Origin: a virus
Lineage: Duplodnaviria > Caudoviricetes
Direction: 5' to 3' (one strand)
DNA length: 30,541 nt
Virus record (IMG/VR): IMGVR_UViG_3300024310_000025
Location: 1-30,541 of that record
The notes beneath the pieces were generated by a model. It searched no databases, was not told where the DNA came from, and was given only the letters and a program-made list of their open reading frames with translations. Shown in pieces: positions 3,842 through 26,955 of the stretch (its first letter is position 1; every line of letters begins with the position of its first letter). The translations under genes and the position numbers were made by a program.

Positions 3842-3970
3842 CTATCTCAGGAAGTAGATCAGCAGGCCGCCAGCCAGTACGACAAAGATCAGCATCGTCT
3901 TTGCCAAATCTCGCATGAGCGCTTTTGCCCGCGCCTCATAGGCTCCATCGGAAAGATTGTTCTCGGTCAT
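3842..3970 (-). CDS. 42-aa membrane peptide co-transcribed with cI
   Basis: ATG 3970 overlaps the cI TGA; C-terminal TM MLIFVVLAGGLLIYFLR; followed by the terminator. Confidence 0.6.
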   Translation of the reverse strand: MTENNLSDGAYEARAKALMRDLAKTMLIFVVLAGGLLIYFLR

Positions 3971-4305
3971 TTGTCGGTTCCAGTTTTGACGACAGATCGC
4001 GCGATTTCTTCGATAAGCTGGCGCTCGCCCTGTTTGGCCTGGTCCCAGATAGACCACATGGCCTCAGGTTCCTGTGGGTTGCGCATGATGAGGCTGGCAG
4101 GATCAGTCATCAGCGTATCTGCCAGCGCCTCCAAGACATCCTGAGTGTAGGGCTGCGTTCCCTTCTCGATCCTGGAAATGCTTGCCACGGACGTTTCAAG
4201 GCGCCCGGCGAGCTGTTCTTGGGTCAGCCCTCGGAACTCGCGCCATTCCTTGAAGAATGTCCTGCGCCGCTGGCGTGGCTTCTGAAGTGCGATTCTCTTT
4301 GGCAT
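3967..4305 (-). CDS. cI: CI-like XRE HTH repressor (short, no S24 peptidase domain)
   Basis: FKEWREFRGLTQEQLAGRLETSVASISRIEKG is an XRE HTH; divergent from the cro-like gene. Confidence 0.85.
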   Translation of the reverse strand: MPKRIALQKPRQRRRTFFKEWREFRGLTQEQLAGRLETSVASISRIEKGTQPYTQDVLEALADTLMTDPASLIMRNPQEPEAMWSIWDQAKQGERQLIEEIARSVVKTGTDK

Positions 4306-4314
4306 TCCAGCACT

Positions 4315-4390
4315 TTACACTCTATGCAAGTGAATTACCCTCACACTAGATGCAAAATCGCTTGCGGACGATTTACAACTAGTGTAAGGG
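4315..4390. promoter_or_regulatory. OR-like region: three operators and PR-like promoter
   Basis: TTACACTCTATGCAA (4315-4329), TCACACTAGATGCAA (4341-4355), TTACAACTAGTGTAA (4373-4387). Plus strand TTGCGG-N17-TAAGGG (4362-4390) mirrors PL. Confidence 0.8.
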
Positions 4391-4398
4391 ATTGAGGC

Positions 4399-4641
4399 AT
4401 GAGTGAAGCAGAGAGAACGAACCCTGTTCGGAAATGGCGCAATGAGCGAAAGCTCAGCCTTGAGGAGGCGTGCCAACTATTTGCCGACCGCGGTTATCCA
4501 AAGCCCTCCATCGCAAAGCTTTCCAGAATCGAGCGCGATCAGGACATCCCGGCAGAGATGGTCCCGGCGCTGGAGCTGATCACGGGAATTCCAGCCAAGG
4601 AACTGCGCCCTGATCTCGCTGAACTGTTTGGGGTGGCTTAA
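4399..4641 (+). CDS. cro: Cro-like HTH regulator
   Basis: HTH plus C-terminal ITGIPAKELRPDL motif typical of Cro/YdaS-like proteins. Confidence 0.8.
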   Translation: MSEAERTNPVRKWRNERKLSLEEACQLFADRGYPKPSIAKLSRIERDQDIPAEMVPALELITGIPAKELRPDLAELFGVA

Positions 4642-4883
4642 TGGGCCAGCCGCAGCCGGTCTTGCATGATGGATTTGCTGCCGTCCTCGTCCAGCGTTCG
4701 ACGGGCATCGGCAATTCCGGCCTCGGCGCCGATCAGGGAAACTATCAAGTTCAATTGCGCGCCGCCGTCGATGGTAAATCCGACGCAGCGAAGCACGCCG
4801 TTGACTTTTCGAAACGCTCCAAATCCATCGACGTAAATCGTCTGCATTCCGGTTGCTTGGAAAAGCAACTCTTTGTCGTTCAT
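4638..4883 (-). CDS. Hypothetical protein antisense to the PR operon
   Basis: Protein-like 81-aa ORF; stop overlaps the cro stop; G-rich RBS and upstream promoter candidate. Confidence 0.6.
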   Translation of the reverse strand: MNDKELLFQATGMQTIYVDGFGAFRKVNGVLRCVGFTIDGGAQLNLIVSLIGAEAGIADARRTLDEDGSKSIMQDRLRLAH

Positions 4884-22952: not shown

Positions 22953-24422
22953 GTGCCATTCAACGGCTCCGGGGTCTTCAGTATTTTGAACGTTTTCGTG
23001 CCCAACACCACGATTCTTTCGTCTGCGGTGAACGCGAACTATACCGATATCGCCACTGGCCTTTCTGACTGTCTGACCAGGGACGGGCAGGCCGGCATGA
23101 CGGCGGCATTTAAGGCGATTTCCGGGACTCTGGCAACGCCCGGCATCAGTTTCACCTCGGATGCAACCGCAGGTCTTTACCTGTCGTCTTCGGGCGTTAT
23201 TGGGCTAGTCGCAAAATCCTTGGGAATTCTGGTCAATTCCTCGATCTACTGTGCGACCGCCGCCGCAGTGCAGGCGGGCGGCTCCGGCTATGCCGTTGGC
23301 GATACGATCACCCTGACGGGTGGAACCGCCATCACGCAAGCGGTTCTGACGGTTGCGACCCTGAGCGGATCGGCCGTTGCAACTGTCACTGTGACCTATT
23401 CCGGCTTTTATTCGGCCAAGCCTACAGACCCGGTTGCGCAGGGATCGACCTCTGGAAGCGGCACTGGCGCAACGTTCAATATGACATGGGCGGCGCAGTT
23501 TACCCGGTCGATTGTGACGAACGAAGCCGGGGCACTTCCTTGGACTCGCCTTGGCGCTTCCTCATATGTCTCGGGCATCATGGCAAAGGCCAATGCCTAT
23601 GACTATGCGAAGTCGATCATCGCGTTCGGTTCGGGAACGTTGCTGAGCAATGCGACGAGTCCGCCGACGCTCACCACGACGCTCAATCCGACGCTTATTC
23701 CGAACTACATCTCAGGGCTCACCCTGTCTACGGGTGGCGGTTCGGCCATCTTCGGCATTGCGGCTGGCGTTGCAAACGATTCTACCAACACCACGCTAAT
23801 GCAGCTTGGATCAGCCTATACCAAGACCACCTCTAACTGGGCAGTCGGGTCTACGAACGGAGGGCTGGATACGGGCGCCATTGCGAACGGCACCTGGTAT
23901 CACGTCTATCAGATCCAGCGTCCTGATACTGGCGTGGTCGATGTCATCTTTTCGCTGTCAGCCTCGGCGCCGTCGCTGCCGGCAAACTACACGCTGTACC
24001 GTCGTATTGGTTCGATCAAGACGACGACCGGATCTCCAGTTTGGCAGAAGTTTGTCCAAGTCGGTGATCAGTTCCTATGGGACGTGATGGTGAACGACAT
24101 CAATACGGCGACGCTCGGGACCACGGCAACATTATTCGCTTTGACCACGCCGCTAGGCGTTCAGACGACAGCGCTCCTTCGGGGCTCGATGTCGAACGCT
24201 TCTGCCAGCATTTACGTGATCGTCAACTCTCCATCGGAGAGCGCTCAAGCTTCTGCGGCGGCCAGCGCGAGCATATCAAACCCTGTCGCTGGTGTTGCGA
24301 ACTCCGGCAGCCTTTCCGCGCTCACCAACACTTCAAGCCAAGTGAGAGCGGTTTCCAACGCCAGTAGTACGACGGTTCTCATGAGCACCTATGGATGGAT
24401 TGATACGAGAGGTAAGGGATAA
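22953..24422 (+). CDS. Tail fibre / receptor-binding protein
   Basis: AGGAGG RBS with GTG; N-terminal MPFNGSG...DIATGLSDCLTRDGQ anchor; TWYHVY...YRRIGSI domain; Ser/Thr/Gly-rich. Confidence 0.75.
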   Translation: MPFNGSGVFSILNVFVPNTTILSSAVNANYTDIATGLSDCLTRDGQAGMTAAFKAISGTLATPGISFTSDATAGLYLSSSGVIGLVAKSLGILVNSSIYCATAAAVQAGGSGYAVGDTITLTGGTAITQAVLTVATLSGSAVATVTVTYSGFYSAKPTDPVAQGSTSGSGTGATFNMTWAAQFTRSIVTNEAGALPWTRLGASSYVSGIMAKANAYDYAKSIIAFGSGTLLSNATSPPTLTTTLNPTLIPNYISGLTLSTGGGSAIFGIAAGVANDSTNTTLMQLGSAYTKTTSNWAVGSTNGGLDTGAIANGTWYHVYQIQRPDTGVVDVIFSLSASAPSLPANYTLYRRIGSIKTTTGSPVWQKFVQVGDQFLWDVMVNDINTATLGTTATLFALTTPLGVQTTALLRGSMSNASASIYVIVNSPSESAQASAAASASISNPVAGVANSGSLSALTNTSSQVRAVSNASSTTVLMSTYGWIDTRGKG

Positions 24423-25186
24423 TGGTCGATCTCAGAGCCCTTACTGAGGCAAATACGAAACGCTGGGCGAATGCCAAGCCGACGCGAGCCTCAATGGCAA
24501 ACTCCGTGGCAAAGCGATTGATCGCCGCCAAGGCCCGTTACCAGACGGTATCGTCCAAAACTGGCGTTCCTTGGTTCGTGATTGCGGTTATCCACGAGCG
24601 GGAATCCTCGCAGAGCTGGACGACCCATCTCGGGCAGGGTGATCCGCTGAGCAGCAAGACGGTTCATGTTCCTGCTGGCCGGGGACCATTCTTCGGGCCG
24701 GATGCATGGGAGCGCGGAGCGATCGACGCGCTGGCTGATTGCGCGCCCTATCTCGCCCGCAAGAAGAACTGGAATACGCCCGGCGACGTGCTGACAAATC
24801 TGGAGGCCTTCAATGGTCTTCGATACGCCAGCGAAGGGCGGCCATCGCCTTACGTCTTCTCGGGAACGTCGATCTACGATCCGCCGACCGGTCCAGGCGG
24901 CAAGGTTCAGCGCGATCATGGTCCCATTGATCCTGTTGTAGACAAGCAGCTCGGCTGCGCCGCGATGCTCATGGCAATGATGGCGCTCGACCCGTCAATC
25001 AAGTTTGGCGGGACTGTGAGCAAAACGAAGGTGGCCTCTGCCGGAGGTGGAGTGGTCGTTGCGGCTGGTACGGTCGCAACTGGGGTGCATCAGGGATGGC
25101 CTCTTTCCTATTGGATGATTGCAGCCAGCATGGCGCTTGTCGTCGGAGTGATTGCCTATTCCATCTTCCGAACCAAGAAGGTCTAG
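24422..25186 (+). CDS. Endolysin (lysozyme-like) with C-terminal hydrophobic segments
   Basis: TGVPWFVIAVIHERESS...LGQGDP...FNGLRY...PSPYVFSGT...DKQLGCAAML. Confidence 0.8.
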   Translation: MVDLRALTEANTKRWANAKPTRASMANSVAKRLIAAKARYQTVSSKTGVPWFVIAVIHERESSQSWTTHLGQGDPLSSKTVHVPAGRGPFFGPDAWERGAIDALADCAPYLARKKNWNTPGDVLTNLEAFNGLRYASEGRPSPYVFSGTSIYDPPTGPGGKVQRDHGPIDPVVDKQLGCAAMLMAMMALDPSIKFGGTVSKTKVASAGGGVVVAAGTVATGVHQGWPLSYWMIAASMALVVGVIAYSIFRTKKV

Positions 25187-25674: not shown

Positions 25675-26109
25675 GTGGAATGGCTGCTTGGCAAGCTGAT
25701 TGCTGCTCCGGTCATCGGCGCCATTCTGTCACCGATCATCAACGGGCTGCTGACGGCGCAGAAGCAGAAACTTGACGCGATTGGCAGTCACGAAGCCGTT
25801 GCCGCCGACCTCGCCAAGCGATCGTTCGATCTTGATATGAAAGAAGCGGAAGTCAACGCTTCAACCATAAAGGCAGAGCAGGGCAACTGGGTCACGCGGT
25901 CGATCCGTCCGCTTCTGGCTTTGCCGGTGATCATTCTGATGTGGAAGCTGCTTGTCTGGGACAAGGCGCTGGGGCAGTGGACCAGCGGCACGACGGACAG
26001 TCTTAGCGATCAGATATGGTGGTACTGCACGACAGTAACAATCGCGTACATGGGTGGTCGATCGGCAGAAAAGGTAGCCGAGAAGATTGCGGGTATTTGG
26101 AAGAGATAA
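25675..26109 (+). CDS. 3TM holin (GTA-holin-like)
   Basis: EQGNWVTRSIRPLLAL...AYMGGRSAEK pattern; GTG start. Confidence 0.65.
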   Translation: MEWLLGKLIAAPVIGAILSPIINGLLTAQKQKLDAIGSHEAVAADLAKRSFDLDMKEAEVNASTIKAEQGNWVTRSIRPLLALPVIILMWKLLVWDKALGQWTSGTTDSLSDQIWWYCTTVTIAYMGGRSAEKVAEKIAGIWKR

Positions 26110-26112
26110 CGA

Positions 26113-26186
26113 GCGGGCCAGCCATACGCGCGAACGAATGGCCAGCCCTGACCGACCACCGGAAGGATGAGGTTCCAATGACGGCT
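26113..26186 (-). ncRNA. PtaRNA1/SymR-like cis-antisense RNA (two hairpins, anti-SD loop)
   Basis: Minus strand AGCCGUCAUUGGAA-CCUCAUCC-UUCCGGUGGUCGGUCAGGGCUGGCCAU...AUGGCUGGCCCG; stems close fully only through G-U pairs on the minus strand. Confidence 0.55.
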
Positions 26187-26255
26187 GCCAACCATTCAAC
26201 CACAGGTTATCAGCGCCATGCTGTTCAAAATTGCTCATTGGTTAAGTCGGGATGA
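26178..26255 (+). CDS. 25-aa leader peptide (MTAANHSTTGYQRHAVQNCSLVKSG)
   Basis: SD-like GGATGAGG at 26165-26172; stop overlaps the ATG of 26252 (ATGA). Confidence 0.45.
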   Translation: MTAANHSTTGYQRHAVQNCSLVKSG

Positions 26256-26548
26256 CGAACCAAACCGACCTTACGGACGTTCAGGCGGCGTTTCTAAAAG
26301 GCATGACCGATCAACGGGCTGCCAACATGTGGGACGCCGCAGACTTCATTGCCGACCTTTCGCCGGACACAAAGGATTTTCTCCGAAAGGCAGACAAACA
26401 GAAGATCGAGCAGCTCGACGCGACACTCAAATTCATGAATGCCACGGGGATCGTCTGGAAGTTCCTGTTGGCAGGTGGCGTCACCATCTTCGGATTTGTC
26501 AAAGCGTGGGAGTGGCTCTCGCAGTTCTTCACTGTCAAGCTGAAATAG
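26252..26548 (+). CDS. Membrane protein with C-terminal TM (lysis region)
   Basis: 98 aa; IVWKFLLAGGVTIFGFV; no clear SD of its own. Confidence 0.65.
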   Translation: MTNQTDLTDVQAAFLKGMTDQRAANMWDAADFIADLSPDTKDFLRKADKQKIEQLDATLKFMNATGIVWKFLLAGGVTIFGFVKAWEWLSQFFTVKLK

Positions 26549-26583
26549 CATGCGCGGAGGATGCCCCGACCACCCGCGAACTG

Positions 26584-26955
26584 ATGCTGCTGATCAACGA
26601 GCACAAGAGCGCGAACACGCAAAGGTTCGAGGCACAGGAAAAAGCGGTTGCCGCGGCATTGGCGGCGGCAAAAGAGGCCACCGCAAAGGCCGAAAGCGCG
26701 TCAGAGAAGCGTTTCGATTCCGTCAACGAATTCCGGGCGACGTTGAAGGACCAGCAAGCCATGCTGGCCCCGCGCGCCGAGGTCGATGCAAAGCTTCAAT
26801 CGATAGAGGAGAAGATTGCTGTAAATGCGGTGCAGGTAGCCCAACTCAACAGCAGGGCAGAGGGGGTTGCACAACTCTGGGGATTCATCTCGGTTGGGTT
26901 AGGAATTGTCATTGCGGGGGCCGCACTATTTCTGCGGCGCCGGGGAGTGGCGTGA
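26584..26955 (+). CDS. Coiled-coil protein with C-terminal TM (lysis region); start uncertain
   Basis: RFEAQEKAVAAALAAAKEATAKAESASEKRFDSVNEFR coiled coil; LWGFISVGLGIVIAGAALFL TM. Confidence 0.65.
   Translation: MLLINEHKSANTQRFEAQEKAVAAALAAAKEATAKAESASEKRFDSVNEFRATLKDQQAMLAPRAEVDAKLQSIEEKIAVNAVQVAQLNSRAEGVAQLWGFISVGLGIVIAGAALFLRRRGVA

Follow-up and report, generated by a model that had tools for sequence, protein, structure and literature searches.

In phage lambda, CII acts downstream of cro and controls PRE. The same phage supplies, in paQ, a precedent for an antisense RNA (PMC12197685). PMC1891008 describes SymR as a repressor of symE whose promoter lies inside symE, and as a stable RNA, in excess and possibly a titrator. 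RepX is a 75-nt RNA of two stem-loops lying across the repA RBS (PMC8136791), and PtaRNA1 receives a brief mention in PMC3300014.

The locus described here lies in the lysis region of a 30.5-kb linear virus record, 68% complete, whose whole 30,541-nt stretch is hereafter the window. Terminase, major head and portal genes were found in it, along with cI/cro-like HTH genes at 3967-4641. Blastn against cultured phages returned short chance matches only. We propose that transcription of an antisense RNA is turned on by a host Crp-type activator and that this RNA silences a leader-coupled membrane gene, a model that, taken whole, we rate slightly above an even chance. With high confidence we infer that the antisense RNA is transcribed; that it represses the membrane gene through leader coupling is likely, and that one particular Crp subfamily activates the antisense promoter is somewhat favoured. 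The features concerned are as follows (window coordinates):

24422..25186, plus strand: probable endolysin, resembling by eye a PG-binding-domain protein at the equivalent place in locus L008
25675..26109, plus strand: holin gene with a putative start codon (PF11351 GTA_holin_3TM, E 2.7e-5; phrog_3427 holin, E 1.3e-11)
26104..26186, minus strand: predicted antisense RNA of about 75-80 nt (fold, covariation, SymR register, and 66.1 bits with model R1, whose training set includes the window sequence)
26115..26148, minus strand: hairpin 2, a GC-rich stem resembling a terminator, its U tail weak (4 U in 9 nt)
26151..26185, minus strand: hairpin 1, with the anti-start codon held in the stem and the loop CCUCAUCC (26172-26165) as anti-SD
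26165..26172, plus strand: leader SD, from predicted anti-SD pairing
26178..26255, plus strand: leader ORF of 25 codons, its stop overlapping the membrane gene start (ATGA)
26194..26202, minus strand: predicted antisense −10 with extended −10 TG (TTGAAT at 26199-26194), without the canonical −11 A
26222..26237, either strand: TGTTCAAAATTGCTCA, a 16-bp palindrome with its centre at about −42.5 relative to the antisense promoter, a likely host Crp/Fnr-family activator site
26252..26548, plus strand: 98-aa protein related to phrog_35975, all-helical, whose single hydrophobic segment is C-terminal (about residues 67-83); its gene has no SD

The lysis region thus runs from the probable endolysin, for which Pfam gave no match, through a membrane gene to the GTA_holin_3TM holin ending at 26109, whose stop lies 4-6 nt from the 3′ stem of the antisense RNA. 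The initial annotation had placed a two-hairpin RNA on the minus strand here, and folding both strands bears this out: 26113-26186 forms two hairpins at −38.7 kcal/mol on the minus strand (z −4.07, 1/200 shuffles equally good) versus −23.8 kcal/mol on the plus strand (z −0.96, 34/200 shuffles equally good). All five G-U pairs that it had singled out as specific to the minus strand are there, with two further ones making seven, and the minus strand is confirmed, as far as predicted structure goes, as the folded, antisense strand. The loop of hairpin 1, said to be antisense to the leader SD, indeed faces GGATGAGG at 26165-26172, 5 nt ahead of the ATG at 26178. If its 5′ end corresponds to the one annotated for SymR, the RNA would start near 26186. 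A terminator scan called none at hairpin 2.

The leader and the membrane gene are arranged like mok and hok. As originally described, the 25-aa ORF ends in an ATGA overlap with the start at 26252, and the gene beginning there lacks an SD of its own: in the window the leader is predicted to pair with the anti-SD at −6.6 kcal/mol, against −2.2 kcal/mol for the membrane gene. Among membrane-gene loci the leader measures 22-25 codons in 17/17, the next start falls −5 to +5 nt from the leader stop in 16/17, and pairing ranges from −4.2 to −9.3 kcal/mol for leaders (17 loci) and from −1.5 to −3.8 kcal/mol for membrane genes (16 loci). Six homologues lacking the cassette have their own SD in three cases (−5.0 to −5.8), a weak one in two, and one start that could not be located. 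Leader-mediated translational coupling is therefore supported at sequence level, with leader SD, SD-less target and stop/start overlap all kept, and an SD-bearing leader overlapping an SD-less target start is what hok/mok/sok-type coupling entails. A 7-codon ORF (MPRPPAN, 26561-26584) lies further downstream and overlaps by TGATG the next gene, a coiled-coil protein with a C-terminal TM (about 26584-26955); it is possibly a second coupler.

The RNA-leader cassette precedes the 98-aa gene in 28 of 33 homologue loci, a total that counts the record of the window itself as well as near-duplicates and three truncated loci, and it does so despite differing upstream genes. It is missing in five (L015, L028, L033, L035, L047) and also in L076, and therefore a gene of this type can, to judge from these layouts, work without it. 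On the protein tree the cassette is patchy, requiring four changes, with 33/500 shuffles equally low. For a set of 17 loci chosen by protein rather than fold, with exact and near duplicates and truncated loci removed, the minus-strand consensus holds both hairpins at −24.3 kcal/mol and compensatory changes affect 13/20 pairs, which answers the question of covariation among relatives raised with the first description; the plus-strand consensus reaches −7.4 kcal/mol, with hairpin 1 lost and only 9 pairs of hairpin 2 left. Because they are kept and covary in homologues picked by protein similarity only, the hairpins are more than chance. A set of 27 sequences, in which those 17 loci are joined by 10 of 28 pattern matches picked after seeing that they fold, and which is biased in that respect, has 92.4% of cells paired and a covariation of 0.683 versus 0.212 (0/500 shuffles), slid controls of this alignment giving 33-45% paired cells. 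Hairpin 2 has 93.7% of cells paired and two-sided changes in 11/13 pairs.

The 98-aa protein has 22 near homologues and forms 54 clusters at 50% identity, and those bearing the cassette are about 55-60% identical to one another. Its hydropathy peaks at 1.92 at residue 67. Pfam gave nothing at E≤1 and no known type I toxin family (Hok, Ldr, SymE and others) matched; the only PHROG match, phrog_35975, is a family without annotated function, and ESM Atlas returned unnamed clusters only. No holin-family homology was detected with Pfam or PHROG, the holin match belonging to the upstream gene, and the AlphaFold model is all helical at low confidence (pLDDT 59, pTM 0.25). What the protein does have is a membrane segment and a lysis-cassette location, both expected of a holin or antiholin, and a lysin or holin domain lies upstream in 5/7 cassette loci and 3/3 cassette-less loci. 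From location and topology, there is an even chance that it is a lysis accessory or membrane-toxic protein. The sole homologue in a named genome, at 39%, comes from a Rhodopseudomonas MAG, and the family of that MAG served as proxy host group (61 host-family genomes), the host assignment following from this one homologue.

A resemblance to SymR and PtaRNA1 had been suggested. In the sense of Rfam membership it fails, the window giving no relevant match at the gathering threshold and none to symR, PtaRNA1 or Plasmid_R1162 even at E≤10; phage relatives reach 32 bits with symR (gathering 61), 25 with PtaRNA1 (gathering 47) and 25-31 with Plasmid_R1162, RF00043 (gathering 55). As a statement about SymR-like cis-antisense RNAs it stands. 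A covariance model built from 27 phage RNAs (R1), with SymR and RepX outside its training set, detects E. coli SymR at 46.5 bits on the annotated strand and in register (next match 8.6), and plasmid RepX at 35.9 bits on its known antisense strand, across from the repA start (next match 11). Because R1, made from phage RNAs, detects both, we regard the resemblance to SymR as real homology at superfamily level, as far as models of sequence and structure can tell, and not as Rfam membership. The features on which we delimited the superfamily are a pair of covarying hairpins antisense to the mRNA, an RNA that spans both the SD and the start codon of the ORF facing it, a promoter embedded in the target ORF (predicted here from a positional −10 signal), and a single model that detects known members on known strands; all were found. 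RF00043 matches in L030, L032, L062, L075, L084 and L440 place the Plasmid_R1162 model on the mRNA strand, opposite to the RepX RNA, and at L051:1799-1865 an int-alpA RNA (RF02996) scores above threshold beside an RNA-controlled ORF. A suhB/BjsR lead was dropped: Rfam scans of the window and relatives gave no suhB match, and PMC5082802 was not relevant.

Two strict patterns scanned against viral DNA returned at least 150 loci, with about 300 estimated for one pattern. In 121 of 131 distinct loci the antisense strand folds better, and 109 fold well, 83 of them directly on ORFs of at least 50 aa and the other 26 on short leaders; the 83 ORFs include RadC, Bro-N, 12 HNH nucleases and 3 GIY-YIG-like ones. 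Leader-type loci have the next ORF overlapped or abutted in 21/26, a hydrophobic segment in 15/25 next ORFs, and a lysin, holin or cell-wall-binding domain just upstream in 6/13 of those scanned; R1 matches also occur in at least 19/61 host-family genomes, 68 candidates per genome having been scored. Judging from these matches, the antisense RNA is a widespread portable module, not confined to the 98-aa gene, since it also precedes unrelated lysis-region membrane genes. This breadth was missed in the initial annotation.

Several side observations accompany this spread. Free-standing HNH and GIY-YIG genes in L109, L123, L136, L141, L143, L150, L160, L161, L171, L185, L197, L217, L116 and L219 have their own SymR/RepX-type RNA and canonical antisense promoter, and several of them sit between head or tail genes. 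One prophage region carries two RNA-leader cassettes 1.7 kb apart (L080 and L102; G044:C1:1744393 and 1746128), each ahead of a different small membrane/coiled-coil gene. Similar-looking membrane proteins are fused directly to the RNA-controlled start in L210 and stand behind a separate leader in L058 and L125, a comparison of layouts that suggests the leader may be a detachable coupler. In L113 and L129 the cassettes are coupled to primase-polymerase and DnaB helicase, an echo of the replication-helicase control by RepX.

Missed in the initial annotation, the conserved codons of the leader are predicted to be the antisense promoter, composed of a weak −10 and the palindrome. Because its conserved residues coincide with these two elements, the leader probably has no function as a peptide. 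An antisense TAnnnT occurs at one fixed offset in 59 of 102 non-redundant RNA loci, versus 2-6 in seven other search windows, and the extended −10 is frequent among the loci that have it. Membrane-gene loci show TTnnnT, with a canonical −10 in 0/17, and have the palindrome at −42.5 in 20/20 (19 distinct leaders), with no indels and a variable spacer. The palindrome is found in 6/26 leader-type loci (one of them a training duplicate), ahead of several unrelated genes, in two further RNA-leader loci from another scan, and in 0/83 direct-ORF loci. A canonical −10 is present in 0/5 palindrome loci versus 59/97 others (p 0.012), and a sigma-70 promoter scan called none at the antisense element. A weak −10 with a dyad at about −42.5 is the signature of an activator-dependent promoter. 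A 16-bp dyad near −41.5/−42.5 of a weak promoter, as found here, corresponds to Crp/Fnr class II. With 30.5 bp between palindrome and −10 box, the spacing is at least as good a match to LuxR-type sites as to those of Crp class II.

Four of eight phage records have a second strong copy of the palindrome: in G003, G004 and G215 it follows cro by 140-410 bp, and in the circular G218 it occupies the corresponding place. The scores of 17.1 (G003) and 22.5 (G004) compare with maxima of 7-12 from 10 shuffles. The window is not among the four, its best cro-side score being 3.4; there was likewise none in G066, G214 and G216, the other match in G214 being a start codon, and no clear −10 at equal spacing was seen by the cro-side palindromes. 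GcrA-like genes follow cro in G215 and G066, and a palindrome variant sits between divergent argD-like and gcrA-like genes in L427 (G035:C1:5288328). Just 3′ of cro there is a conserved leftward ORF of 80-92 aa from no known family (window 4638-4883, minus strand; L259:17611-17889; L435:1141-1407), with a second palindrome about 90-100 bp upstream in G003 and G215. In L262:4588-5184 and L265:13483-14220 the cI frame continues unbroken through cro, a gene of the other strand; this would allow a longer CI from a PRE-like promoter.

On host chromosomes the perfect palindrome occurs at 18 sites in 12/61 host-family genomes (reversed control 0) and in 2/151 genomes order-wide. Its sites are mostly intergenic, beside sodB, cold-shock (csp), desaturase, phasin, L,D-transpeptidase and Crp/Fnr genes, with some matches in coding sequence or at start codons, looser matches being among the coding ones. 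One Crp/Fnr subfamily, whose closest solved relatives are Crp/Fnr-family regulators, is present in 12/12 palindrome-positive versus 12/49 other genomes (p 1.6e-6, uncorrected for kinship). The three members nearest the query have the palindrome 130-205 bp upstream, the query having been chosen for that reason; the next 20 score at least 10 upstream in 6/20 versus 1/20 gene bodies, a level that the best of 20 shuffles also reached in 6/20 regions. One upstream site is identical to that of the window over 18 bp. Members of the expanded subfamily sit in stress-type islands with ECF sigma, KaiC-like and PHA genes (L285/L291, L283, L286, L448, L457-L459), for which the palindrome is a candidate 16-bp operator. 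In a viral scan the perfect palindrome gave 53 distinct sites, 47 in DNA below 56% GC and six GC-rich ones with no cI/cro or lysis link by phmmer. No LuxR/GerE (PF00196) or Crp (PF13545) HTH exceeded the cut-off in five phages each.

The same antisense and leader switch could have its palindrome bound by a host LuxR-type quorum-sensing regulator or by a phage CII-like activator, and we think this unlikely. The −42.5 centring and the 16-bp dyad resemble lux/tra boxes, in which the dyad overlaps the −35 (PMC1766932), and in G003, G004, G215 and G218 the cro-side sites occupy the place of CII action, with paQ as a precedent (PMC12197685). Against both binders stand the enrichment of the palindrome in intergenic DNA of host chromosomes and its tight link to one Crp subfamily; a LuxR binder has in addition to face the absence of GerE/LuxR HTH in 5/5 phages, and a CII-like one the dissimilarity, by eye, of the CII-position proteins of these phages. 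A shade less probable still is a constitutive, type-I-TA-like safety catch against a leaky toxic membrane protein, the palindrome being an ordinary −35 or a repressor/roadblock site. The stability, excess and possible titrator role of SymR (PMC1891008) would suit it, as does the same RNA fronting 12 HNH and 3 GIY-YIG-like of the 83 direct ORFs without a palindrome, but the strict dyad at a fixed distance, tied to loss of the canonical −10, and the lack of any sigma-70 call in the region argue otherwise.

That RNA and leader are a functionless vestige of a decayed homing-endonuclease or other mobile gene seems very improbable. Free-standing HNH genes of late operons are frequent companions of the RNA, and the protein-tree distribution of the cassette is patchy, as given above; however, at about 55-60% protein identity the stems show compensatory changes, the leader keeps its length, and both the stop/start overlap and the promoter geometry are retained. 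Among the loci inspected no nuclease gene preceded such a membrane gene, and a direct HNH precursor of the leader was not seen. Least credible of all is that the hairpins work on the mRNA strand as a cis attenuator, or that the minus strand codes for the 125-aa ORF at 26238-25861. Hairpin 2 is partly able to form on the plus strand, and the ORF does exist in the window, but G-U pairs and hairpin 1 are found on the minus strand only and the antisense fold is the better one at 121/131 distinct loci. As a protein, the minus-strand ORF was rejected: it is not conserved and exceeds 100 aa in only 2/16 loci.

According to the model that we favour, with a Crp/Fnr-family regulator of the host as activator, the antisense RNA would be made from a promoter inside the leader, its loop would pair with the leader SD to block leader translation, and the coupled, SD-less 98-aa membrane gene would thereby be silenced. 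Binding of the regulator at the −42.5 palindrome would switch the RNA on, and while the regulator is active the RNA would impose a threshold to be overcome by read-through or early late-operon mRNA. Several relatives would have this regulator at work downstream of cro too, and one host signal would both favour lysogeny and restrain the lysis-region protein. This allows us to speculate further, at somewhat less than an even chance, that temperate phages of Nitrobacteraceae/Xanthobacteraceae wire a host Crp/Fnr sensor into the lysis-lysogeny circuit in place of CII, through the cro-side palindrome and a leader-promoter SymR/RepX-type RNA silencing interchangeable lysis-region membrane proteins, and that a single superfamily of plug-in translation silencers unites SymR, RepX and hundreds of uncatalogued phage RNAs found before homing endonucleases. 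If true, there would be a testable route for host physiology to tune a phage lysis-region gene post-transcriptionally, a Crp/Fnr subfamily that is expanded and uncharacterised would gain a binding site, and attention would be drawn to small membrane proteins beside holins, an overlooked class whose dose must be controlled. Whatever the regulator, SymR and RepX belong to one widespread RNA module missed by Rfam thresholds.

The separate parts have precedents, and their combination is without counterpart in the literature searched; the searches returned nothing on the cassette, the palindrome or a SymR-RepX superfamily, with supplementary regulon tables, which could hold the motif, outside their scope. 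Like SymR/symE of E. coli (RF01809), the phage element is a two-hairpin cis-antisense RNA (about 77 nt) over SD and start, with its promoter within the target ORF. Unlike SymR, the phage RNA would act on a 25-codon leader and, by coupling, on a membrane protein, symE being an AbrB-fold toxin, and a palindrome at −42.5 stands where SymR has a plain promoter. RepX, the R1162 ctRNA of IncQ plasmids (RF00043), shares the 75-nt, two-stem-loop form and the position antisense to RBS and start codon, but it controls the plasmid replication protein RepA directly, with no leader. PtaRNA1 (RF01811) is likewise a mobile cis-antisense RNA, an antitoxin per Rfam, and the relative L075 scores 25 bits with its model; it differs in that the window gives no match and the gathering score of 47 is not reached.

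In hok/mok/sok and in P1 c4-icd-ant, an RNA acts on a downstream gene via a short coupled upstream ORF, as proposed here. Gifsy-1 IsrK-orf45-anrP is also RNA control through a short coupled upstream ORF, although IsrK activates and does not repress (PMC12197685). All three have another RNA fold and other proteins, and the 98-aa protein has no Hok-family match. With lambda CII/PRE plus paQ, and with PAK_P4as15, the locus would share an antisense RNA that delays late or lysis functions, and with the lambda pair also one activator that serves a site near cro as well as a late-control antisense promoter (here in 4/8 records; PMC12197685 for the known systems). The difference from CII/paQ and PAK_P4as15 is that the activator here is likely host-encoded (Crp/Fnr) and that the target would be a single lysis-region membrane gene, not Q or endolysin.
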